Source of the DNA: Obrimoposthia wandeli
Taxonomy: Eukaryota
Length of the DNA: 64,000 bases
NCBI GenBank assembly: GCA_977020255.1
Contig: CDROCS010001548.1
Span: 372,001-436,000, forward strand
Direction of reading: 5' to 3'
Shown here one piece after another: positions 28,750-64,000 of this stretch; position 1 is the first letter of the stretch; each line of letters starts with the position of its first letter. Under the pieces are notes generated by a model that saw only the letters and a program-made list of their open reading frames with translations, was not told the DNA's origin and did not search any database. Made by a program: the position numbers and the translations under genes.

Positions 28750-29730
28750 TAAGATGCTGATATCCAAGTTGGATCTGAATAACCATGCCATTTAACAATA
28801 TATTGTTTATGTTTATCAGTACCCTTAGATTTTAATATTTTTTGAATACGAAAACGTTAGGTTTATTTGATAAGACTTGTAGGTCTTGCTCGTAAAATTT
28901 ATCCTGAATGTAATTATTGTCAACATCTTTAATATTATACATTATTGGATTACTCTTTTGATCAATTTTACTTATAGAAAATATTTCATAGCCCCAATTT
29001 TGATCAAAATTTTGAATAAATGGAGTAAAGCTCATTTTAGAAATTCGAACATATTCGTTTTTCTTATATTTAGCTTTTTTAATATTTTCTTTTTTATTCC
29101 TGTCTATCCAAATATCCACAGAGTTTTTATTAGTAACGTCAACAGGTCTCATTTTCTTGAGACTTCTATGTTCAGAGTGATTATATGCATGTATTATTTT
29201 AGGTAAAACTTGGATCCATTTTTTATTACTTTCTTTTGTGAAAAATGTTTTTATTCGATCTCTTGAAGTACGATTAAATCTTTCTACTACTGCTGCTTTG
29301 TACTACAAAAAAACTGAGAAGTGATTTATATTATTTTGTTTAAATAATGATTGAACTTGCTTGTTATAAAATTCTTTTCCTAAATCAGTTTGCACATTTT
29401 GTGGAATGTCCTATTTTAATATTTCTTTAATGGCTCCAAGCATAGCTATTGAAGACTTTGCTTTAACTGGAATTGCACGAGCAAACCTGCTAAATACATC
29501 AATACATGTTAAAATATATCGATATCCCTTATTAATGGAAGAATATGGGATCATCTCCATCAAATTCATTTACCATAAATTATTAGGACCGCTGGTTTTG
29601 TAAGCTCTAGTTGGGAACCTTCTTCTCATCGGATTGTTCAGACTGTAGGCTAACTGATCGCTCAGCCATTTCTGCGTTTTCTTGTAATTCTTTTGTTCTT
29701 TTTGCCAATTTTGTGAAGGGAAATTTCATG
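28750..29730 (-). mobile_element. Maverick/Polinton retroviral-like integrase (rve plus chromodomain), pseudogenised
   Basis: KWLSDQLAYSLNNPMRRRFP, GYRYILTCIDVFSRFA, QTDLGKEF, KAAVVERFNRT, YVRISK, NWGYEIFSI, FYEQDLQ and a chromodomain-like tail; stops present. Confidence 0.9.
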
Positions 29731-32553: not shown

Positions 32554-33562
32554 TGTGTTGGGTTTTCTATTTGAAAAGATCCTCGTATGGAGGCCCCTAA
32601 CGTGAGTTCTGTAGAAATAGGACTTACATATGTATGTGGCCTATCTTTTGGGTTTATTTCTCTTGTCTCAGTTCTGAAGGTTTTTGTGCTAGTGTATTGC
32701 CGTTGTGCAGAGAGCTGTGTTCACAAATATAACTTGTGTGGTTCCCACTAATGTAGTGTGATGTGTAACGTGTTTGATAGTGATCTACTGCTATATTTGG
32801 GTACCTGAAATTAATCTAGCCAAATGTAGGAAAAGCTATATTCTTATACCAACTAAAACAAAAGGGTTTAACAAATTGACAAATAGATTGTCTAACAAAA
32901 TTATTTCAACACACCGAAAACAAAGAATGAACCTATACTAGTTGCGTTTTAACAATTTTCCTAGTCTATTACAGGTATTGGGGTTCGATCTCTTGGTTAC
33001 AATTTCAAGTGTGATTTAGCTTTAATATTCAAGCAAATGATATTCTGTTCTAAATTTTTTATTAAATTATTGATAATTCACGGAAAATAATTCAAAATAA
33101 CTTTATTGTTAATAAACTTTTACTAATAATTCACGAGTAACAATTCAGATAGCTTTATCGTTATTAACTTTTACTTTTATTTTTTTACAGTTGTTCATTA
33201 CAATATAATATTATTTCCTTCGCTCTACTCACCTTCCTCTAATCCGTTCGTTAACCCTCCCGTGTATCCATGAAGTCCGGTTGCTGGCTCAGCTGGGATT
33301 CCTCAGTCTGGTTGTCCTTTTCGATGCGGCTGTCCCGATCGTCCTCTTTCACGATGTTCTTCGAAAGTTTGGATATTATGGTGACTCTGGTTGAATCCGT
33401 TAATTATTTCCTTAGATGACTGTTGACCTGTTTTCGACGATGGTGCAATTCCACACCCAAGAGCGTTGTCCCTTGCCTTTGCGAGTGATTTGTTGGCGTT
33501 CCATGAGAGTGGCGTTTCCAGAAGTCCTAACCTCTTTCTCTTCAACACTCTCTCAGGTTTCT

Positions 33563-33790
33563 CTAACAAAATTCCACCTGTACTTCTATGTCCTGTTGGT
33601 TGGGTTTTATTATGATGTACTTTGTGAGTTGTCTTCTGCATACAGGGCAGCGAGGATATGTTGGATGGGGTAACTCTCCATAAGTTATGATCCATTTTGA
33701 TAAACATTTCTTGTGATATAGGTGGTTGCAGGTATTGGGTCTTGTTCTTCGTCCTGGTATATCTTCTAAACATATTGGGCATTCCTCAGA
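33563..33790 (-). CDS. Small RING-H2 (C3H2C3) zinc-finger protein, putative E3 ligase
   Basis: MSEECPICLED...TCNHLYHKKCLSKW...RCPVCRR; all eight ligands present; ORF intact. Confidence 0.85.
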   Translation of the reverse strand, partial: SEECPICLEDIPGRRTRPNTCNHLYHKKCLSKWIITYGELPHPTYPRCPVCRRQLTKYIIIKPNQQDIEVQVEFC

Positions 33791-33889
33791 CATTCTAAAT
33801 ACGTTATGACAATTAATTTCTACATGATTTCTACATAATTCTACTCTCACTTTCTACAATATATTCTACATCTTTTTACACACTAATTT

Positions 33890-35040
33890 ATTTACAAACT
33901 CCTCTGACATGTAACATCTTTATGGGAGGTGAAGGCAAGGGTCTCAATTCCACTTCCTCCATCCTGGGTGGGTTACATCATCATAGTTCTTTACATCTTT
34001 GTCGTACCTTTGGGAATACCTGACTGCCTTTTACGCACATGACTGTCAGTAGAAATACTGCAGTAAAACAACGGCTATTACTATTAGACCATTCATTGGT
34101 GTCATTCCACTATCTGTGGATTGATAGTCATACCTCTCTTTCGTGTTTGCCGGTTTGACTGGTGTTTCCAGCAGTTCTGTTCGATTTCCGTATATTATTT
34201 TCAATTTTTCGATCATTGGAGGTTTCTAAGTTTTGGGTTCTTGTCTGAGTTTTATTATGATTCGAGAATTGAGATCTAATGGAACTGTTCCTTTCACACT
34301 TTCCTTTCCATGATCGTGCTTTGGTTTCTGGAATCTGGCTTTCTGGGGCTGGTCTTCATACCTGGTTCATTGAATCGACTCGTTCGGTTTTTTATAGTTA
34401 CATAGTATATTTGATCTATTATCACGATGATTACAGTAGAAGTTTTTCGAGCATCATTGGAAATTTGACTGCATGTCTATTCCGCATCGTATTTTAGATC
34501 CACAACTTGGGCTTGTGTTGTCTGTGGGCTCTTTGTATCAACATTTGGACAAACCACAACTACTTGGTCAGTCTTTAACAATCTGAAATATAGGGTAATG
34601 CAATTTCATATGATTCCATGTAGTCTGTTTGTGACTGCGATTTTGTCGATAACTTTCCAGATGCGTTCGTCATTAGGTACTATTACACTTCTTGTTCGGA
34701 TGACTTGGATGATCCATTTCTATTTAGATATGGTTATTCGAAGGTGTAAAACCTTCTCAGAATACAATAGAATGGGTTGGTAGTATGGTAAATTGTGGTC
34801 GATTTCCACCTTGATGTCACAAATAATGTACAATTCCTGGTCGACATATTTAGTCGCTGAGGTCTGTAGCTGCATGTTCGCCACGTGATTTTTTCTTTAG
34901 TCTGGGTATCTCTATATATAGAGCACGTATCCCATCTTGTCTCCACGTGTTTATAATAATTTCGTAACCAGCTTTAGTTGTCGTAACTTGTATAACCAGT
35001 ACAATTCCTATTATTGTACGTGTCCTAACCTCTGTGATTT
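33890..35040 (-). pseudogene. Disrupted type-I-membrane glycoprotein-like ORF (accessory gene 2)
   Basis: Signal-like TIIGIVLVIQVTTTKA, Cys-rich segments (ORF 34734-34946 and downstream), TM-like NGLIVIAVVLLQ, tail EEVELRPLPSPP; multiple stops and frameshifts; the C-terminal part is homologous to ORF 43842-44168. Confidence 0.55.
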
Positions 35041-35080
35041 CTCTCCTATATCCCAGACTATCGATAAAGTAAGGTCTTTC

Positions 35081-36010
35081 TTAGATACGTTCATATACCG
35101 TTGGCTGATATTCTGGTTCTGGTTCGTTTATGAATGATGGTATTGGTAGAGTTGTGTCGAATTTCTGTAAGTTCATCTGACCTGGTCGTCTTGAAAAATC
35201 TTGACATTTCTTTTTTGATTGTAATTTGACTTTTGTGCAACACATCAAGATGAGTAATATCAATATTATGAATCCGCTAATCATGGATACAATTGGATTG
35301 GCCAATTCTGGTATACCGTACTTTATTACTTCTATTCCTTTACTCTTGATGGTTAATATCTTGAATTTGTCTGCACTCTTGTTATATCACTCAGAAGATT
35401 TTAGTTTTTTCAAATGTGTTTCCTACTCATGTGACAATATTAATGCTATAATGTCCTCTGAGTGCCGTCACCTCTTTGGCTGGCATGATGCACACTCGTT
35501 CTGGGCAGTCTCTCACACACATTATTATTACTGGTTTATTGTGAGTTGTCTGGATTTTTTCCAAACTAATGTCTTGATTTCTCAGATGTAAATTATATTC
35601 TGGTAGCGTCATAAATTTGGGATTTACTGGTTGGAATAGCTTGTAGTATCAATCCAATCAAAAATACACAAATCAATTCTTGTGCGATAGTAGGCTTTGA
35701 TTATCATTTGGCAAAATGTTTTGGTTATTATTTGTTTCAGACATACTTGTTTCTGGTTGCATCGTTTTTGTCTTGGTTATTCATCGCTGTTTTGACATTT
35801 CACCAATTCCAGTTTTTCCGATAATCGACTGTACTTGTTTGTCTTGCATCACTAGCTCTCCGAATCCTGTTTTGGTGAACAAATATGTTTTACGTTCTTT
35901 TTTGTTTTTGATTATCACTCTCTTACTTCCATACTCACGTGTTTGATGACATCGCCGTCGAATATATACGTTGTATCTTTTGTATCTGTTTCTTTTTGTA
36001 TTTTCTTCGC
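35081..36010 (-). pseudogene. Disrupted membrane-protein-like ORF (accessory gene 1)
   Basis: Cys-containing fragments (MCVRDCPERVC), TM IVSMISGFIILILLILMCC, tail ending EPEYQPTVYERI; frames broken. Confidence 0.55.
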
Positions 36011-36019
36011 AATTCGTTT

Positions 36020-37430
36020 TCATCGTCCACATCCTGCAAACATTTCTGATATCCTATCGAGTGTACGCTGTCGGTCAGCTCCGTAGTTCATTCGGAATTG
36101 ATTTAGTCGTCTGTTTTGCGGATGATATAACGCTTCATCTACTATGTTATCCTTTATCCGTCCGCCTAGATAAACAAGTACTTCCGCCGTTGGTCCATTT
36201 GGTCTCTTCATTTTCACAAACTGGAATCTTTCTGTGTCGTTTCTTTTGAGTTGAAACAATTTCCTAATTAGCCAAACATCGATCAGTTCTATCAATACTA
36301 GTAATATCACGAGTGTCGGTGTATTATATTGCATGATGTAGTTGTTTATTTCTTTAAACCAGGAACCATTTCTGTGGTTGGATCCTATCTCTTGTGCTCC
36401 TGTTGTCGGCATTAGACAACTTAACAATACTAATGCTAGTAATCTTCGATACTGAGCTATCGGTACTGTTGCTACATTCGCACTCGGTTCTTGTTGTTTA
36501 TTCCTTTTTTCAGAATTTTTCTCTATGTCTCGAACGAGTAAAGGTTTGAATTCCGTGTCTGATCTATTCTGCTTCATATAGAACATCGCTTCCTCTGGTG
36601 TGTAACCATGGTATTCTACCAACAATGCTACACCCATGGTAGGTGCTAACATTGTGTCTTTATTCTGATATATCAGAACACCGTCTCCTTCTATGATTTC
36701 GTTTTGAATTGTTTGAGTCAACTTCGTCAAATGTTCTTGTGCATCAGTTACTTCTTGACTCGAAGCATGTATGTATCGTGTGGTATCGTCTTCAGTATTT
36801 TGACATATACTGATTATCTGACCTCCGATCTCTACAATGTTAATTACTCGGTTTATGCTATGGAATTTTAATCCAGCAGTATCTATATCTTCTGGATGAC
36901 ATAGAAATACTTTCGGCATTATCTCAGTGATTTTGTTGACTCCAGCTATAAATAATCCGGTCAACGATAATGATTGAAGGAAAGACCTTTCCTTTGGATC
37001 CTCTGGGATATCGTTCATCCGTCTTCGTTCCTGTAACATGATTTGGTATTTCGCCAATTGTCCCAACAAATTGATATTTAGGTTCACGATACTTCGTCTT
37101 TCTTGGAGATATGTCAGCGCTTCTAGTACTTGCATTCGTATATTCTTTATTAGATATGCCATCACCAAGGTTGCTGATGTAGAAATTCTTTTCTGGCTAT
37201 GTACCAATATTTTCTCTTGGTTTAGTAGTTCGTTGTAGATTATCTCGTTTGTTTCTTCGAACCCCTCGAAAAGATCAGCTTCCATTGAGTCTTTTATTCT
37301 TAATGTCATAGCTCTAATTGTCTTTTACCGAGATTCGTGATGTATTGTCACATTGATAACATATGTTATTTCTTTTTCTAACAGTTTATTTTCGTTTGTT
37401 GCATCTTCTACGTATCTGGAATTATCTCAC
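36020..37430 (-). CDS. Tandem dual-specificity-phosphatase-like pseudophosphatase domains followed by two hydrophobic segments (429-aa ORF 36020-37309; N-terminal extension frameshifted)
   Basis: ITYVINVT...IKDSMEADL...ILVHSQKRISTSATLVMAYL...ALTYLQERRSIVNLNINLLGQL is a DSP fold with HCxxGxxRS replaced; second domain EIMPKVFL...INRVINI...TPEEAMFYMKQNR; TM-like LLALVLLSCLM and TLVILLVLIELIDVWLI. Confidence 0.75.
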
Positions 37431-38061
37431 TCATCTCTGGCGTCATTTACGAATCGTCAAGGTTTAGTCTTTCTAACCTTTTCTCTATCTGTTCGTCTGT
37501 GATGAAAAGTTTTGCCAGTTTCTTTCCTCTTATCATTCGCATTGCTGTAGTAATACTCTTCTTCGTCTCAGGGGTTTGTTCCTTTGTTTTTTATTCTTCT
37601 GACTTGGTTTCTTCTTCAGATTCGATTCGCCACCCTTGTATGTTTTCCTTCACAAAGTCTTTGTTTCTTCTTTTCCTGTTCTCTTTAGCAAATACACATT
37701 CCATAGTTCTTTCGAATCATTCTATTTTTAAAAATATTATTATCAACCTATTTAATTTATCTCTTCGAAGAATATATCTACTCGACTTAACAAAGTTATT
37801 CACTTTATTTACCTCGAGGAACTTATCAACTCGATTTAAAACTTATTCAAATTACTTATCTCAATTTTACTTATATATTCTTCTTTATTTATTTATTTTC
37901 GATTTTTAAATTCTCGAATAATGTGTATCTAACCAATATTTCAATGTTATCTCTTGTTATATCATTATTTTTTAATTCTGATAAAAATTTGCTTATCCTT
38001 AATTTCTCTATAAAATATTTCGTCGACAAGACGATCCACTCCATTGTCTATATTTATAGTA

Positions 38062-38559
38062 TTATTCATATGAAACAATAGGTTTAAAGGGATTTTGTTT
38101 ATAGAAAAATAATAACAAGATGTAATAAAATCTAATCAAAATTTTCAATCCCAATATCATAACTTTACCACTGGAAAATATATTTAAACGTAGCGGTTTA
38201 AATTTCAAATAACTGAGAGCAGAAAAAATTTCCGGTTCAAACATGCATTCTTCTTTCATTTTTTCAGCAATTTTATAAATATTTATTTGTTTCCCGAGAT
38301 TAGCCGAAATTTTGATTGATTGTATTCGAATTCCAAATAGTAAATTGAACCCAAGCAAAGGTATTTTGTATCCCATAACATGACAACTTCCTAAAAGAAT
38401 TCAATATGAAAATATAATAAAAAACTAACCTGAGGGAAATAGAACAATTGTGAAATCATCAAACATTTTCACATATTGTCTCGGCTTCCATTCATTGAAT
38501 AATAAGTACGAAACATCATCTTCTATTCTGCTTTTATAATTTATATTTACGAGTTTCAT
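38062..38559 (-). CDS. Compact divergent TBP-fold (TATA-binding-protein-like) gene, 152 aa, one 39-nt intron (38429-38391)
   Basis: Exon 1 MKLVNINYK...WKPRQYVKMFDDFTIVLFPS, GTTAG...TTTTAG intron, exon 2 GSCHVMG...IRIQSIKISANLG...FEPEIFSALSY...LNIFSSGKVMILG (cf. TBP YEPELFPGLIY, LIFVSGKVVLTG); splicing removes an in-frame TAG. Confidence 0.75.
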
Positions 38560-39929: not shown

Positions 39930-40640
39930 GTCTCGAAATCCTGCATACAACACTAATATGGTTTTGGAGTAAAAGGTACCCCCCTGGGTACTGGATCATC
40001 ACTACCAATTTCAATGACTTCGAAATCACTACTACTATCTTTCCGACGTTGTTGATTATTTGTAAAATTCCTTCTTTTATCGAGTATTTTCTCGTCATTT
40101 CCTCATTTAAATCTCCTTTCACTAACAGTTCTTTGATTAAACTCAATTCTTCATCTTCCTTTTGTTTCTGGATGATTTCTTTGTCTATTTTCCCGGTTTT
40201 CAGCAAAATTGTTAGTAGGTTTGCTTCTCCTTATCGGTCATTGACTTCGCCTTGACCCTCTTCTTGGATTACGTGTCCTTTCTCATCTACATTTATCAAC
40301 CTTGACAAGCAATCTGCATTGCCATTCGACTTTCCGGTTCTAATTCGGATTTCTAAATCAAACTAAGCTAATTTCAAAAACCATTTGTTTAACCTGCTAA
40401 TTTCATCTCTATGTTTATATAAGAACTGTAGTGGTTTGTGATATGTATACAAGAATACTTTTTGTCATTCTTCCTTCCTAATCATCTTGTCCTAATACTG
40501 CTCCTACAGCATAGTTACTTGCATCTGTCATTAGTATGAATTGTAGATTCATATCCGGAAATGCTAATATCGGCGCCTTTATCAATATCTTTTCAGATCT
40601 TCGAACGCTTGTTGTGCTGCTTTACTCCATATGAATTTTT
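39930..40640 (-). mobile_element. Gypsy/Ty3 LTR-retrotransposon pol fragment (RT connection, RNase H, pre-integrase)
   Basis: KNEKFIWSKAAQQAFEDL, LIKAPILAFPD, FILMTDASNYAVGAVLGQ, NGNADCLSR, IIQKQKEDEEL. Confidence 0.85.
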
Positions 40641-42510
40641 CGTTTTTCCTTGTCAACTTTCTCAATGGTGTTGCTTTGTCGGAAAAATGTTCAACAAGTC
40701 GTCTGCAATAATTCGCAAGACCTAAAAAACTATACTTGGAGTATGCAACCTATAAGAAGTATGATGGATAGAAAATCAAGAAAAATAAATAGATATCTTA
40801 GTAAGCATTACCATCGACTAAAACTAGTTGATGGGAATAGTTATTTCAAGATAAAATAAATAACTGAGAAATAAAACGTTGTTTTGATGTATCCGAATCA
40901 ATTTTCTTTGTTTTGGATGAATATAATAAATATAAAATAAATACATTAAATTATTTTTTACTGAATTTAAACTCATAAATAAAGTGTTAAAGTGTTAAAA
41001 CGGTTAAATCCAATTCTATCAAATATTATTTGTCTATATATTGAACATGGAGATCATCAGAAATGCTTTGCTGCTAGTTAAGATTATTAAAATTATAAAT
41101 AATCCAGAAGTAATATTAATGAAAAATCAACTACTTATATTATTCAGTAAACTCAGTAGACAACAAATTTTGTGATTGGTTTAAAAATTAAATGAATCTT
41201 ATTGGCTTAATACTACTTTGAAAATAGTGTATAAAAAAGCATCAAACAACTAATAACTCCGTATTATAAATGAAATTGGAAAATCTATAAATAGTTCAAT
41301 CATTAAATGTACAATTGAATTATCTTTACATTCAGTTCTCAATCTATAACTTAAAGCAGATTATTTTCTTTCTTAGCTGATTTAGTTTTTGAGGTATTTA
41401 AAGTTTATTTTCAATTTCTATATAAGTATTCTATAATACAACCAAATTCAACTTTATCGGATTCTATATGAGTTATTGGGTGAATTATTGTACTTTCATA
41501 ATTATTTACAATTACTACTTTATTGGATTTTAAGGTGGTATAAAAATCAACATAATATCTTTTCCATTTGTACATCAAACTATCGAATTTCATTGAAAAA
41601 ACATTAATAAAGATAAGGAAAATAGTTATAACAACATTTATATATTTAAGTAGATTGACATAACATCATAACAATACTACAACAAGTATAACCTTAATGA
41701 TTGAAATTACTTTAACACATAATGAATTATATTTATTTCTTTTGAGTGTAAGTAATAGTTCCGGTTCGAATATACAACCAATTCCTAATTACAGTGATGC
41801 AAATTGACTATCTTTCCAACATATATAGTGATTTTAACTGATTGAATTCATTCAATTTGTATACGTAATAGTAAATTGCGGTTCGTACTTAGTTTCATAT
41901 ATCACATTAATTTACATTTTCTTAAATTGTTATGTTTCAAATTAAAAGAATATTTATCTAATTTGAATATAGCCAAATTATAATCTGCATGCGTTTCTAT
42001 AAAGTGACAAGGATTTGCACTGCTAAATCGTAGATTTTCTATGCATCTGATACTATGAGCTTTGAAAGTTTTATTATAGAAAATTTGTCTCAAATCAGAT
42101 ATTTTCTTCAAATACTCATATACACAAACATAACTTTATTAATTCGTTTCTTCTGTTTAAATGTATTTAGTTTTTTCTGCACAGCTTCTTTCGTTTCAAA
42201 TTGTGGACCATCGAAAACAGAATCAGATTTAATTCTTTAAATATATTCAACAATATTCAGGTCTGAACTCAGAGCAGACTATGCAAGTAGGTAAATGTGG
42301 CACTTCTGGAACAAAGCCCTCCCCCTGAGGACAAGTCAAAAATCTAGGTCAAATTTTTTGATGAGGACAAAAAATTTAGGTCAAATTTTGAAATTTCTGC
42401 GGAAAATTTGAAATATAGGTCAAATTTCTCCCGAGTACACATGGTTTTTTATTTAAAGTCAAGACCTCATAAGGTCAAGGACATGTCCTCATGAGGTCAA
42501 GGTCTAGGTC

Positions 42511-42790
42511 ATGAGCTCATATGCTGACTATGAGCCCAAGGTTATTTTCAAGATTATGAGCTCATGTGCTCACCATGAGCCCATAGTTATCATCAAGGTT
42601 ATGAGCTCATGTGCTCACCATGAGCCCAAGGTTATATTCAAGATTATGAGCTCATGTGCTCACCATGAGCCCAAAGTTATCATCAAGGTTATGAGCTCAT
42701 GTGCTCACCATGAGCCCAAAGTTATCATCAAGGTAATGAACTCATGTGCTCACCATGAGCCCAAGGTTATCATCATCAAAGTCCAGGTTG
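42511..42790 (+). repeat. 45-bp tandem repeat (~6 copies) within the left TIR
   Basis: Unit ATGAGCTCATGTGCTCACCATGAGCCCAAGGTTATCATCAAGGTT; fewer copies in the right TIR (~50295-50410). Confidence 0.9.
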
Positions 42791-43094
42791 AGCTCATGTC
42801 ATGAAAGATAGACATCTAACCACATCATCTAAAAGGATTATTATTAATCAATTATAAATATAAGATTATTCAAATAATGTTTGAAAAAACACAATAGAAG
42901 GACAATAATCAATAGATATTTGCTCTTTTATTGTGTTTTCTAAACATATATAATCGAATTAAATTAAAATTAAACCTTACTCGATATCGTGAGCAGCAGC
43001 AGCATAAAATATAAATAAAATAAAAATTTACCTGAATACTGCAGCTAAATCCAATTCAGCAGCAGAACTGTTTACATTCACCGCACACATAGTC

Positions 43095-43129
43095 CAATAC
43101 AAGGCAGAGAAAATCTCTGCCTTGTATTG
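43095..43129. repeat. Perfect 16-bp stem hairpin within the TIR
   Basis: CAATACAAGGCAGAGA-AAA-TCTCTGCCTTGTATTG; near-identical copy at ~49965-50000. Confidence 0.9.
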
Positions 43130-43329
43130 AAGTGTACAGTAGGGAAGAGAAAATCACACACTTACACAGATGTGATTTACAAATCATTACAAATAATTAC
43201 CATTATTTGCAATATTTGTACACGTGACGTGCTTTGTCCCTTTGTGAATTATTTCCTTTCACATGTTGAGGACATGAGTCTTTCATGACAACGACTATGA
43301 GCACATGGTTACTCACTCTTGATGGATCT

Positions 43330-43440
43330 TCTTTGAGCAGGTTATTTGAGCTGATTCTTTAAGAAAGTTATTTGAGTTGCTTCTTTTAAGGAAGTTATTT
43401 GAGTAGCTTCTTTTAAGGAAGTTATTTGAGTTGCTTCTTT
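43330..43440. repeat. 27-bp tandem repeat within the TIR
   Basis: TTAAGGAAGTTATTTGAGTTGCTTCTT units; mirrored at ~49590-49760 with extra copies. Confidence 0.85.
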
Positions 43441-43503
43441 TCGAATAGGGTTCTCTCAAAGGGTCTAAAACCTTCAAAAAATTTATTTTTCTACTTTTCA
43501 AAG

Positions 43504-43716
43504 TTATATATAATAGGCTTGGTTGGGTTCTATTTTGATTAACTTTGTGAATTGTCTTCTGCATACAGGGCAACGAGGGTATGTCGGATAGGGAGTTTCT
43601 CCATAAGTTCTGATCCATTTTGATAAACATTCCTCGTGGTGTAAGTGGTTGCAGGTATCGGGTCTTGTTCTTCGTTCGTTTAAATCTTCCAAACATATTG
43701 GGCATTCTTCGGACAT
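43504..43716 (-). CDS. RING-H2 protein, second copy, with its C-terminus fused into the left TIR
   Basis: MSEECPICLEDLNERRTRPDTCNHLHHEECLSKW...RCPVCRR; the last codons QAYYI* derive from TIR sequence. Confidence 0.8.
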   Translation of the reverse strand: MSEECPICLEDLNERRTRPDTCNHLHHEECLSKWIRTYGETPYPTYPRCPVCRRQFTKLIKIEPNQAYYI

Positions 43717-43841
43717 TCTAAATACATGATGACAATTAATTTCTACATGAGTTTTACATATTTCTACTTATTTGTACAATCGCTTCTAGATGTTTCTACA
43801 TATTTTTACACACTAATTTCTCTACAACCTCCTCTGACTTA

Positions 43842-44168
43842 TCATGTCTTGATGGGAGGCGGAGGTAAGGGTCGCAATTCCACTTCCTCCATTGTGGGTG
43901 TGTTACAGCATCGCAGTTCTTTGCCTTTCCGTCGTATTCTTGGGCATACCTGACTGCCTTTCACGCACACGACTGTCAATAAAACTACTGCTGTTGATAC
44001 TACGGCCATTACCATTAAAGCATTGACCGCTGTTATTCCGCTGTCCGAGGATTGGTAATCGTACTTTATTTTGTTGTTTGTCGGTTCGAAGGGCGTCTCC
44101 ACCTGTGTTGATTGGTTTCCGTGTATTATGTATTTTTGGCGCATTTTCAAAAAATATTTTTGGCACAT
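43842..44168 (-). CDS. 5'-truncated membrane-protein fragment (TM plus Pro-rich tail), homolog of 33890-34200
   Basis: YDYQSSDSG, TM NALMVMAVVSTAVVLLTVVCV, tail EEVELRPLPPPP; homology stops near 44130 where the palindrome-associated repeats begin. Confidence 0.6.
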   Translation of the reverse strand: MCQKYFLKMRQKYIIHGNQSTQVETPFEPTNNKIKYDYQSSDSGITAVNALMVMAVVSTAVVLLTVVCVKGSQVCPRIRRKGKELRCCNTPTMEEVELRPLPPPPIKT

Positions 44169-44418: not shown

Positions 44419-44623
44419 GCCAAAATGTGCCAAAAATATTTTTTGAAAATGCGCCAAAAATATTTTTGAAATTTTGAATTTGGCGCCAAAAATAAATTTT
44501 GAAATTTTGAATTTGGCGCCAAAAATAAATTTTGAAAAGCGCCAAAAATGATGCATTTAAACAAAAGAATGGAATGACCTTGGAATGACCTTGGCGTACT
44601 CGGGAGAATTGGTTGTGGAGAAA

Positions 44624-44753
44624 GGTTAGGGTTAGGGGTATGGCTTAGGGTTAGGGCTATGGCTGGGGTTAGGGTTATCGTATGGCTTAGGGTTAGGGTT
44701 AGGGATATGGGTGTGGTTAGGGTTAGGGATATGGGCGTAGTTAGGGTTAGGGT
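44624..44753 (+). repeat. Interstitial telomere-like array (12 TTAGGG units in pairs/triplets with TATGG-containing spacers)
   Basis: Directly visible; G-rich on the plus strand. Confidence 0.9.
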
Positions 44754-49009: not shown

Positions 49010-49520
49010 AAACGTTTTGGAAAAAATAAATTTTTGAAGGTTTTGGACCCTTGAAGGTGTACCCTTGAAGGTCTAATGAAAGTCAGATCAATGCTATTAT
49101 ATATAACTTTGAAAAGTAGAAAAATAAAAATTTTGAAGGTTTTGAACCCTTGCAGGTCTGAGTAAGTTCTGATCAAGCCTATTATATATAACATTAAAAA
49201 GTAGAAAAATAAATTTTTGAAGAGTTTGGACCCGTTAAGGTCAACCCTCGAAGGTCTAATGAAAGTCAGATCAATGCTATTATATATAACTTTGAAAAGT
49301 AGAAAAATAAAAATTTTGAAGGTTTTGAACCCTCAAAGGTCTGAGTAAGTTCTGATCAAGCCTATTATATATAACTTTAAAAAGTAGAAAAGTACATTTT
49401 TGAAAGTTTTGGACCCTTAAAGGTTAAGCCTCAAAGGTCTGAGTAAGTTCTGATCAAGCCTATTATATATAACTTTGAAAAGTAGAAAAATAATTTTTTT
49501 GAAGGTTTTAGACCCTTTGA
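49010..49520. repeat. ~75-bp subterminal tandem repeats (6-7 copies, two alternating variants)
   Basis: AAAAGTAGAAAAATAAA..TTTGAAGGTTTTG.ACCC...GATCAA..CTATTATATATAAC units. Confidence 0.88.
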
Positions 49521-50852
49521 GAGAACCCTATTCGAATTACCATATTAAAGAATAAACTCAAAGTAGCAACTCGAAGAATCAGCAATAATAAGTACCTTAA
49601 AAGAAGCAACTGAGATAATTTCCTTAAAAGAAGCAACTCAAAGAACTTCCTTAAAAGAAGCTACTCAAATAACTTCCTTAAAAGAAGCAACTCAAATAAC
49701 TTCCTTAAAAGAAGCAACTCAAATAACTTTCTTAAAGAATCAGCTCAAATAACCTGCTCAAAGAAGATCCATCAAGAGTGAGTAACCATGTGCTCATAGT
49801 CGTTGTCATGAAAGACTCATGTCCTCAACATGTGAAAGGAAATAATTCACAAAGGGACAAAGCACGTCACGTGTACAAATATTGCAAATAATGGTAATTA
49901 TTTGTAATGATTTGTAAATCACATCTGTGTAAGTGTGTGATTTTCTCTTCCCTACTGTACACTTCAATACAAGGCAGATATTTTCTCTGCCTTGTATTGG
50001 ACTATGTGTGTGGTGAATGTAAACAGTTCTGCTGCTGAATTGGATTTAGCTGCAGTATTCAGGTAAATTTTTATTTTATTTATATTTTATGCTGCTGCTG
50101 CTCACGATATCGAGTAAGGTTTAATTTTAATTTAATTCGATTATATATGTTTAAAAAACACAATAAAAGAGCAAATATTTATTGATTATTGTCCTTCTAT
50201 TGTGTTTTTTCAAACATTATTTGAATAATCTTCTATTTATAATTGATTAATAATAATCCTTTTAGATGATGTGGTTAGATGTCTATCTTTCATGACATGA
50301 GCTCATGGTGAGCACATGAGTTCATAACCTTGATGATAACTTTGGGCTCATGGTGAGCACATGAGCTCATAACCTTGAAAATAACCTTGGGCTCATAGTC
50401 AGCATATGTCCTCATGACCTAGACCTTGACCTCATGAGGACATTCCCTTGACCTTATGAGGTCATGATCTAGATTTTTCCAATGACCTCATGAGAGCATG
50501 CCCTTGACCTTATGAGGTCATGACTTTAAATAAAAAATCATGTGTATTCGGGAGAAATTTGACCTACATCTGTCATAAAAAATTTGAGTTCAAAAATTTT
50601 CGCGCTAATTTCAAAAATGTTCAAAACTTTTGCGAAAATTTCAAAATTTTCATAAAATTTCATGGAAATTTCAAACATTTTCAAAAAATTTCGCGCAAAT
50701 TTCAAAAAATTTGACCAATATATTTCAAATTTTCCGCGAAAATTTCAAAATTTGACCTAAATTTTTTGTCCTCATCAAAAAATTTGACCTAGATTGTTGA
50801 CTTGTCCTCAGGGGGGTGGGGCTTTGTTGCAGAAGTGCCACATCTACCTACT
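49455..50852 (-). repeat. Right terminal inverted repeat
   Basis: Reverse complement of 42286-43521, with an extra ~190-bp CGCG/AAATTT block near 50560-50730. Confidence 0.92.
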
Positions 50853-62474: not shown

Positions 62475-64000
62475 TTATGTAATTTCATAATGTCCATAAG
62501 CGCGGCTTCTATTTTTCTCAATCCAATAGCGTTTGTCCTCTGATGAGCTAAGAGCAGTTTTTTGTATAATGATTGTATATATCTGGTGATTTATTGTTCC
62601 AAACTTCTTTTGTGATATACTATATGCATTACCGTTTTCATAGACGTTTAAATATGTTTGATGTACAACCGTTGATCCCTTAAGATTTACTCCTTTTGCT
62701 TTATTATTTTCAAAGTCATCTTCAAACTTAACATTTACAAAGTAAGAAAATCCATTCTTTATACATTCTTCCTTCTGATTCATCTTTAAATAAACCTATT
62801 TTACTATTAAATTCATTAGAATATAATGGTTCATTCACATTATAATTTGACGTATCTAATGCTCCATCTGCAATCATTTGAGGCAACAACTGATTTCTTA
62901 AATTAACACCTTTGCATTCTAAAAAGAATGAATCAGTATCTCCGGCAACTATATTAATTGAACAATTAGATAGTGATCTATAATTTTGTAAATCATGATA
63001 CTGAAGATTATACATTCGTAATTTGCTAAGGTCTAGTACAGCTTGACCTATATAATTTGGTCGATCGAGACAAATAAAGTCTTTTCTTAATAAAACTGCT
63101 ATTAAATTATCATGAATTTCAATTGATCGTTGAAACATAGGTTTGCTAGTATATGTGATTAATTTTGTAGAACTAGTGCAGATGCGAAGATTCAACCGTT
63201 TCTTAACATTTTCAACGGTCTTTCCATACAAACTAACATTTTTAAGTTTATAAAAATCTTTGTCACATTTATTCGTTTCTTGTGATTTCATTTCAGAATT
63301 ATATTCTATGTATTCTGTGAATATCTTAGCCTGAGAGAATTTTACTGCTCGATGAATAATTGTTACCACTGCTCCTAAACTAACATACATCTGCAATAGT
63401 CTCCAATGAATAACGTAATGACTTTATGATGAATGTGTCTTTAAAAGATTTTCATTTTTTTTATCAGGTAGACATTTTTTTTCTGGAGCTATAAGAAGAT
63501 CGTCTAAAAAATCATGAAGGTTTTCTGGTATTACCAAGTCTACCTCCATAACTTAACCATATTCAATATGTTCCATGTCCACATTTTTTCATTTCATGCA
63601 ATATTTCGTTTAATTTTATATCATCAAGAATCCATTCAAAATCTCCTTTTGGTAAAGGTTGATCAAGAGCCCAACCATATAAATTATTAACATATATATA
63701 TTAAAGACTCGTTTCTTCATAAGCGACTACATGATGCTTATTGACAAATATCATTCCTCCACATATACCCGAAGAAATCATGTTGTACATTTCAGGATCC
63801 TGCATCAGTTCAACCTTATGTTTTAATATTTTTAGAGCACTTGCCCAACTCAACCCAGGAATACTAAAAATGTTAAGTGGTTCTAAATCATCTTCACTGA
63901 GAGCCTTTCTTCTGAATGTTTGAAACACGTCAGCTAATAAATATACGTCAGACTTTAAGTAAACTAACATATAATCCAAGATATTTCTACAATTGTTTAT
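62475..64000 (-). mobile_element. Maverick/Polinton protein-primed PolB relic (copy 2; runs off the window)
   Basis: DVYLLADVFQTFR, GICGG, VNNLYGWALDQPLP (motif A), KLKNVSLYGKTVEN (motif B), AGDTDSF (motif C), IGLFKDE, EDKRYW; frameshifted. Confidence 0.93.

Follow-up and report, generated by a model that had tools for sequence, protein, structure and literature searches.

The stretch analysed here comprises 64,000 nt of the Obrimoposthia wandeli genome (contig CDROCS010001548.1, positions 372,001 to 436,000, forward strand; hereafter the window). Between positions 33563 and 37430 the window contained intronless coding remnants on the minus strand, with a GC content of 36.8% compared with 29.0% for the whole window. 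A sequence-only reading had described them as four tightly packed open reading frames (ORFs) from a giant long terminal repeat (LTR) retroelement or an endogenous virus, encoding two dead dual-specificity phosphatase (DSP) domains, two membrane proteins and a RING-H2 ligase. Strand, absence of introns and raised GC content were borne out, while the four ORFs resolved into one broken polyprotein frame plus a RING gene. The window copy is a decayed, internally deleted 3' remnant (33543-37726) of a Burro-type giant Gypsy element and is itself non-functional debris. Elsewhere in the family, the same tail encodes a putative active phosphatase (DSP1) and a conserved, apparently inactive second domain (DSP2).

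A decayed retroelement tail in the window

Window positions 37725-33915 aligned collinearly to a single open frame of a natural copy (L032, contig C898) at ~76% nucleotide identity. This alignment revealed 14 premature stops in the window remnant and, as aligned, at most 19 indels that shift the frame, some as compensating pairs. The 429-aa ORF at 36020-37309 contained two DSPc stretches (profile match E 3.7e-22); its start fell within DSP1 and its end was a premature stop.

A piece of the 5' untranslated region (UTR) repeat abutted the tail, marking an internal deletion of ~12.6 kb whose junction, among the 40 scored candidates, was spanned by none but this copy. The Gypsy pol fragment noticed earlier upstream of the remnant belonged to the same family; lying out of order relative to the 5'-UTR piece, it is probably not part of one intact insertion with the tail. 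The LTR of the element family had no match within the window. The features of the window copy and the nearby fragments were as follows, all on the minus strand:

33912..37726, minus: decayed post-integrase polyprotein tail; one frame in unbroken copies, collinear with L032 residues 533-1852
37028..37434, minus: DSP1, MAP-kinase-phosphatase-like catalytic domain; frameshift and stop near the N-terminus, P-loop altered
37175-37204, minus: altered DSP1 P-loop VHSQKRISTS of the window copy
36521..36922, minus: DSP2, predicted pseudophosphatase domain; P-loop equivalent at 36641-36673, purifying selection
36266..36445, minus: membrane unit 1; signal predicted at 36395-36445, then a short luminal loop bearing an N-glycosylation sequon, and a transmembrane (TM) helix at 36266-36316
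35081..35700, minus: membrane unit 2; remnants of an ectodomain, a TM helix at 35237-35293 and a cytoplasmic tail
35084-35101, minus: YxxI motif (TVYERI) in the tail of membrane unit 2; a premature stop cuts the tail in the window copy
33912..35017, minus: membrane unit 3; predicted signal 34970-35017, ~330-residue ectodomain, TM helix 34032-34090
33915-33941, minus: proline-rich polyprotein C-terminus (PLPSPP), part of membrane unit 3
33563..33793, minus: RING-H2 gene 1 (RING1), a separate ORF with its own ATG; 76 aa here, 99 aa unbroken
33543..33782, minus: overlapping frame, possible overprinted gene; starts 11 nt past the RING1 ATG
37745..37884, minus: 5'-UTR repeat piece of the element, adjoining the polyprotein tail
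39987..40731, minus: reverse transcriptase (RT)/RNase H piece from this element family; out of order, with another repeat between

A younger second fragment of the family was present at 43505-44141 (minus strand), comprising the TM helix of unit 3, the proline-rich end and RING1. It was 88-92% identical to young copies and sat inside a palindromic repeat-rich region.

The element family and its polyprotein

Searching the 429-aa ORF against its own genome returned 15,355 first-look candidates, with 11,740 from a DSP2 query and 14,214 from the Pfam DSPc model; first-look candidates are not copy numbers. All 98 scored matches to the ORF were near full-length at ≥75% identity, and many sat in open frames of 1,000-3,758 codons. 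The 3,758-codon frame on contig C898 contained a fusion glycoprotein, two aspartic proteases, a BIR, a RING, RT, RNase H, an integrase and the tail match. Outside the own genome, searches for tail homologues returned ordinary DSPs only.

A long repeat pair surrounded the coding region in four of five further regions. TG..CA LTRs and 4-bp target duplications were found in all three elements whose ends were read, and a putative primer-binding-site-like TGG motif occurred 8 nt past the 5' LTR. Element sizes were 23.0, 23.4 and ~24.5 kb. LTR segments outside the tandem repeats were 98.5-100% identical, which indicates a recently active family. Full copies thus placed the tail in frame with RT and integrase and between direct LTRs rather than Polinton terminal inverted repeats; of the origins suggested earlier, the giant LTR retroelement stood, and the in-frame RT and integrase with direct LTRs excluded a DNA virus or Polinton.

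In one copy (C2060), the polyprotein was a single frame of 576 + 4,873 codons interrupted by one stop; other copies were broken elsewhere. The frame encoded first, in order, Gag/CCHC (Retrotrans_gag E 0.007 and zf-CCHC E 2.6e-6 at the frame start), a candidate ubiquitin-like region, a weak candidate Bcl-2-like region, a mononegavirus-type fusion glycoprotein (env; PF24664 E 2.1e-93, in frame, upstream of the first protease), a protease, a BIR, a RING and a second protease. Next came RT, RNase H, integrase, three beta-rich repeats, DSP1, DSP2 and three hydrophobic pairs, so that the Gypsy-type order of protease, RT, RNase H and integrase was present. In total, ~1,750 residues of polyprotein lay past the integrase, and three separate RING ORFs followed the polyprotein stop. 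On this architecture the element is filed as Burro-type, and not as Burro1-4; the likeness to Burro would also suggest a planarian host.

Two further features of the frame were observed. The two aspartic protease domains flanked the BIR-RING block (L080:2364-9998, residues 1435-1522 and 1985-2073). The three beta-rich repeats between integrase and DSP1 (L032:388-1500, contig C898) were absent from the window, had a dN/dS of 0.16 and had no Pfam match. Their Atlas similarity was 0.88-0.89 with a low recognition score, their model reached a pLDDT of 39.7, and Z scores of 4-5.5 to plexin and NF-kB IPT (dimerisation) domains occurred among unrelated beta folds. An IPT/TIG-like identity is a lead only.

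The phosphatase pair and its neighbours in the tail

Active-site motifs were compared across 59 loci, namely the 30 best matches to the window ORF (itself included) and the 29 best matches to a young copy. The DSP1 loop read HCQKGISRS in 49 of the 59 loci; Cys and Arg were kept in 54 and the general-acid Asp in 56. The altered loop of the window copy was seen in one locus. The dead DSP1 of the earlier reading is therefore real in the window copy and, by this comparison, private decay, as Cys and Arg are kept in most copies. With an intact active-site motif, family DSP1 is a putative active phosphatase.

The best solved relatives of DSP1 by sequence were DUSP10 (E 4.9e-24), followed by DUSP4, 1, 2, 16 and 8. 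Its structural model had a pLDDT of ~90 and matched MKP-2 with Z 24.9 and an rmsd of 1.2 over 142 residues. Pfam found no Rhodanese match in the element frame, so no kinase-interaction-motif (KIM) docking domain was present. A search for host MAP kinase (MAPK) phosphatases (MKPs) was crowded by element copies: 10 of 10 loci checked were the element. One locus (L023, contig C404) had the DSP1 loop in all three frames of one strand, which suggests that the DSP1 segment was locally duplicated in tandem or that the assembly is faulty there.

Taken by itself, DSP2 matched DSPc from profile position 1 to 127 (of 133), with E 3.8e-6 in one copy and 6e-4 in a second. It scored 33-37 bits with a cellular-DSP profile, compared with at most 6.3 bits for 200 shuffles. 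Its Atlas neighbours were DSPc clusters (0.94), the nearest being clusters of viral DSPs. The earlier calls of two DSP domains and of a lost DSP2 loop were thus both upheld, with profile searches returning the DSP fold. The Cys and Arg equivalents were missing from DSP2 in 59/59 loci; the Asp equivalent was absent in both copies aligned, and the loop Gly was also lost. Judged by its sequence, DSP2 is a true family-wide pseudophosphatase. A role in phosphate binding or trapping appears unlikely, because the Arg is lost, whereas STYX proteins keep it. The earlier proposal of STYX-type substrate traps accordingly fitted neither domain, since DSP1 keeps its Cys in the family and DSP2 has lost its Arg as well. 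A nearer analogy may be the inactive D2 domain of receptor protein tyrosine phosphatases (PTPs).

That reading of the locus, as four separate genes with two dead STYX-type decoys, possibly from an endogenous DNA virus or a Polinton, had several points in its favour: the window DSP1 lacks Cys and Arg, DSP2 is a pseudophosphatase throughout the family, and Polinton-like debris occurs elsewhere in the window. The window DSP1 loop, however, occurred in 1/59 copies, its three altered residues stand among 14 premature stops, the deletion junction was seen in no other scored candidate, and other copies have this region between LTRs, in one frame with RT and integrase. We regard it as the least probable of all readings; what looked like a cassette of dead decoys stems largely from the decay of a single copy.

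Selection was measured as pairwise dN/dS against one natural copy, using 10 low-decay copies of which 7-10 covered each region. Values were 0.04 for DSP1, 0.04 for DSP2 and 0.07 for the integrase; the membrane units ranged from 0.16 to 0.48, and RING1-3 gave 0.31, 0.14 and 0.18. In 10 older copies, the DSP domains gave 0.11-0.12. Changes common to at least three copies were mostly synonymous (DSP1, 16 nonsynonymous to 36 synonymous; DSP2, 10 to 36), while private changes were not. These patterns indicate plainly that the tail is maintained as protein and place the constraint on DSP2 at integrase level.

Downstream of DSP2, three signal-like stretches, each ending in a small residue, were each paired with a TM helix. 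The pairs are predicted to form three type I membrane proteins freed by signal peptidase; two membrane proteins had been proposed earlier and hydropathy gave three units. The second tail had been said to end in TVYERI. The motif was present, and its position at an end was due to a premature stop: a stop directly followed TVYERI in 1/59 loci, the window's own (5/59 did not cover the site), and in none of the 26 covering tiles (of 28). T-I-Y-x-x-I was kept at an internal position in 23 of these 26 tiles. The motif resembles the immunoreceptor tyrosine-based switch motif (ITSM) consensus. An ITSM reading was rejected, as the motif is internal and, by our estimate, its three specified residues are expected by chance in so long a frame. 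The PLPxPP motif at the other tail proved to be the true polyprotein C-terminus in the family, where 17 of the 22 tiles that reach this site (from 28 in all) conserve the proline-rich end; in the window copy two stops separate it from the TM helix.

These units could instead be virion or cell-to-cell spread proteins, acting in receptor binding or budding with a late-domain-like proline-rich end, which would make the tail structural and not signalling. The repeated signal-ectodomain-TM layout is that of enveloped-virus polyproteins, the element carries a fusion glycoprotein (E 2e-93), and the proline-rich C-terminus is conserved as described. Profile searches with the ectodomains, for which the earlier reading had raised the question of fusogen folds, gave no significant match and no fusogen or structural match for any of them, and a structural tail would leave the phosphatase pair and the RING genes unexplained. 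We consider this improbable as a replacement for a signalling role, with which it is compatible. Among rejected candidates, an Ephrin-like fold in the distal part of ectodomain 3 was unsupported (PDB profile E 0.73-1.3, no gain from 28 copies, best stretch in a different register, no Pfam Ephrin match). Matches to orthoreovirus p10 (E 0.02) and poxvirus 2L (E 0.016) were weak and likely due to chance or TM composition.

RING1 contained the C3H2C3 zinc ligands C5, C8, C22, H24, H27, C30, C49 and C52 (zf-RING_2 E 1.2e-9), in agreement with the RING-H2 ligase gene called earlier. It was the first of three RING genes, of which RING2 and RING3 were absent from the window copy. Among 29 copies examined, an AG lay 0-2 nt before the ATG in 24/24 covered copies of RING1, 19/21 of RING2 and 20/20 of RING3, which is compatible with putative splice acceptors. 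Four sequencing runs of undefined type from a single sample yielded no splice evidence that could be used. Third-position GC was 78% in RING2 and 65% in RING3 (L081:7468-8294) compared with 37% in the polyprotein; this difference suggests a later capture of both genes from a GC-rich donor.

In unbroken copies a 225-codon frame overlapped RING1-RING2 (L081:7119-7796) and was open across diverged copies. It contained 9 stops in 4,666 aligned codons, compared with 150 in 4,667 for the third frame. Approximately 10 stops would be expected under polyprotein codon usage and ~5 under that of the RING genes themselves. The frame had no family match. It is possibly an overprinted gene, or may simply stay open because third positions are C-rich.

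Retroelements capture host sequence, and the composition of RING2 and RING3 would agree with a tail of captured passenger DNA, useless to the element. Against this, dN/dS was far below 1 throughout the tail, changes in at least three copies were mostly synonymous and the frame was open over thousands of codons. Such a passenger origin is very improbable.

Other repeats were found in the window. In the stretch 37884-38400 (minus strand), a different high-copy repeat began at 37884 (92-93% identity elsewhere, 4,431 candidates), and a TBP-like frame (Pfam E 1e-10) lay a little farther on, at 38062-38400. Long inverted repeat arms at 42321-43521 and 49455-50815 (653 nt, 99%) held tandem arrays with units of 45, 27 and 183 nt; TTAGGG-like repeats occurred at 44608-44752. 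Frames at 62475-63390 and 28832-29152, both on the minus strand, resemble what we take to be Polinton polymerase and integrase debris.

Possible function and known systems

The signalling and ubiquitination character first ascribed to the tail was retained. We consider it probable, with moderate confidence and from sequence evidence, that the element brings a MAPK-type phosphatase and a docking or regulatory pseudo-domain which, with its BIR, RING and Bcl-2-like modules, serve to weaken stress and death signals in cells expressing it. DSP1 and DSP2 would act together to switch off host MAPK stress signalling. The pair would be freed by the element's aspartic proteases and stay cytosolic, possibly tethered by the first signal, while host signal peptidase would cleave after each of the three internal signals and so release three type I membrane proteins. 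DSP1 would dephosphorylate JNK, p38 or ERK. Because no rhodanese/KIM docking domain is present, docking or regulation may be supplied by DSP2, in the manner of receptor PTP D2 domains. The RING-H2 genes would be expressed from spliced subgenomic RNAs and act as E3 ligases, and the BIR, the IAP-type RING, the Bcl-2-like region and the phosphatase would keep the cell alive and unalarmed during element replication.

Several observations weigh against this proposal. MKP-2, STYX and Slingshot all matched the DSP1 model at the same Z of 24.9, so the fold cannot name a substrate, and a 34-row tree grouped DSP1 with no cellular DSP group; given the tie and the tree, sequence rank is what points to MAPKs. 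The DSP2 model was of low confidence (block pLDDT 33-76). The dN/dS pairs have common ancestry and so are not independent tests, and the copies examined were the best matches to two queries, not a random sample. The ubiquitin-like (E 0.0044) and Bcl-2-like (E 0.12) regions, although in the expected order before env, were below Pfam cut-offs and had no PDB match, and MATH, ankyrin and dUTPase had no Pfam match in the frame. Membrane topology was judged from hydropathy and by eye, and the ectodomains matched nothing in profile searches.

The main rival holds that an active DSP1 targets the element's own proteins or particle, in maturation, uncoating or early post-entry steps, and not host MAPKs. 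Poxvirus VH1 acts in this way on its own virus proteins and particle. The phosphatase shares its polyprotein with the structural proteins and would thus be packaged at a fixed ratio, the frame has no MAPK docking domain, and the nearest Atlas clusters of DSP2 are viral DSPs. MKPs, however, were the best sequence matches of DSP1 among solved structures, and the BIR, RING and Bcl-2-like neighbours point to host death signalling. We judge this rival rather unlikely, though it deserves more weight than the structural-tail reading.

A broader version of host control remains tentative. It pictures a poxvirus-like kit within an env-bearing retroelement polyprotein: a MAPK phosphatase steered by a pseudophosphatase, three released membrane proteins, IPT/Rel-like decoys, spliced RING ligases and an overprinted gene, such that derepressing thousands of copies would rewire ERK and JNK signalling directly in the stem-cell progeny of an animal that regenerates. 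As described in the portions of the sources covered, and in favour of the MAPK proposal, planarians have a host MKP that acts as a gate on ERK-dependent differentiation (PMC8144950). When one planarian is deprived of a PIWI protein, BURRO1 RNA goes up in cells that are losing tissue markers, with no increase in DNA damage, and BURRO1 RNAi did not rescue the PIWI-loss phenotype (PMC8532177). The latter result argues against a sole role of BURRO1. If the proposal is true, the phosphatase would offer a mutagenesis-independent route from transposon derepression to disturbed differentiation.

According to the part of the Burro review covered, Burro elements have been suspected of interfering with apoptosis and ubiquitination, without experimental proof (PMC6431247). 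An enzyme assay could test this idea directly, given a phosphatase domain that is small and soluble, carries an intact motif and is constrained at integrase level. For annotation, thousands of element-borne DSP domains will swamp host DUSP genes, and single decayed copies mimic pseudophosphatases, as in the window.

The Burro layout, as given in that portion of the review, is one ~5,000-aa polyprotein in which Gag/CCHC comes first and a mononegavirus-type env, in the same frame, separates gag from pol (PMC6431247). In common with planarian Burro1-4/GYPSM1, the element here has a single polyprotein, a CCHC Gag, candidate ubiquitin-like and Bcl-2-like regions that scored below Pfam cut-offs, an in-frame env, a BIR, a RING, the protease-RT-RNase H-integrase order, thousands of copies, and tandem repeats in LTR and UTR. 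Burro exceeds 30 kb, whereas the element here is 23 kb. Pfam detected no MATH, ankyrin or dUTPase in the frame; the Burro cargo was detected with HHpred, and one published Burro-like element has no MATH in ORF1 (PMC6431247). Unlike Burro, the element has two protease domains. Also unlike Burro are the ~1,750 post-integrase residues with beta repeats, DSP1-DSP2 and three membrane units, followed by three RING genes. The terms "phosphatase" and "DSP" are absent from the text of the review, its figure excluded, and the portions covered of PMC11410931 and bioRxiv 10.64898/2025.12.11.693146 contained nothing on Burro domains. A literature search turned up no description of a retrotransposon, Burro included, that carries a phosphatase, although Grohme et al. 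2018, supplements or Repbase may already list the domain. The element type is already known, and in the literature covered the DSP pair, membrane units and RING trio after the integrase were not found described.

DSP1 shares with MKPs (DUSP10/MKP5, DUSP1, DUSP4, DUSP16) the DSP fold, the HCxxGxSRS loop, the general-acid Asp, the AYL and PNxxF motifs and ~35-40% identity. Unlike MKPs, it has no rhodanese/KIM and lies inside a retroelement polyprotein, with an inactive DSP and then a membrane anchor after it. At most it would work as the catalytic domain of an MKP does. STYX proteins, in the part of the source covered, keep the loop Gly, Ile, Ser and Arg and have lost the catalytic Cys (PMC8269279). 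DSP2 resembles STYX and MK-STYX in keeping the fold and lacking the Cys and differs in also lacking Arg, Gly and Asp, while family DSP1 is not STYX-like. The D1-D2 tandem of receptor PTPs likewise joins an active domain to a second, conserved domain that has the same fold and is inactive (PMC8269279, same portion). Unlike receptor PTPs, the pair here has the DSP fold, is arranged active-then-inactive ahead of a membrane anchor and is encoded by a mobile element. The Cdc14 A/B tandem also joins an active domain to an inactive copy of the same fold. Poxvirus VH1, baculovirus PTP, IAP and RING genes and bracovirus PTPs are parasite-borne phosphatase, RING and anti-apoptosis genes; unlike these accessory genes, those described here belong to a reverse-transcribing element and lie mostly within one polyprotein.

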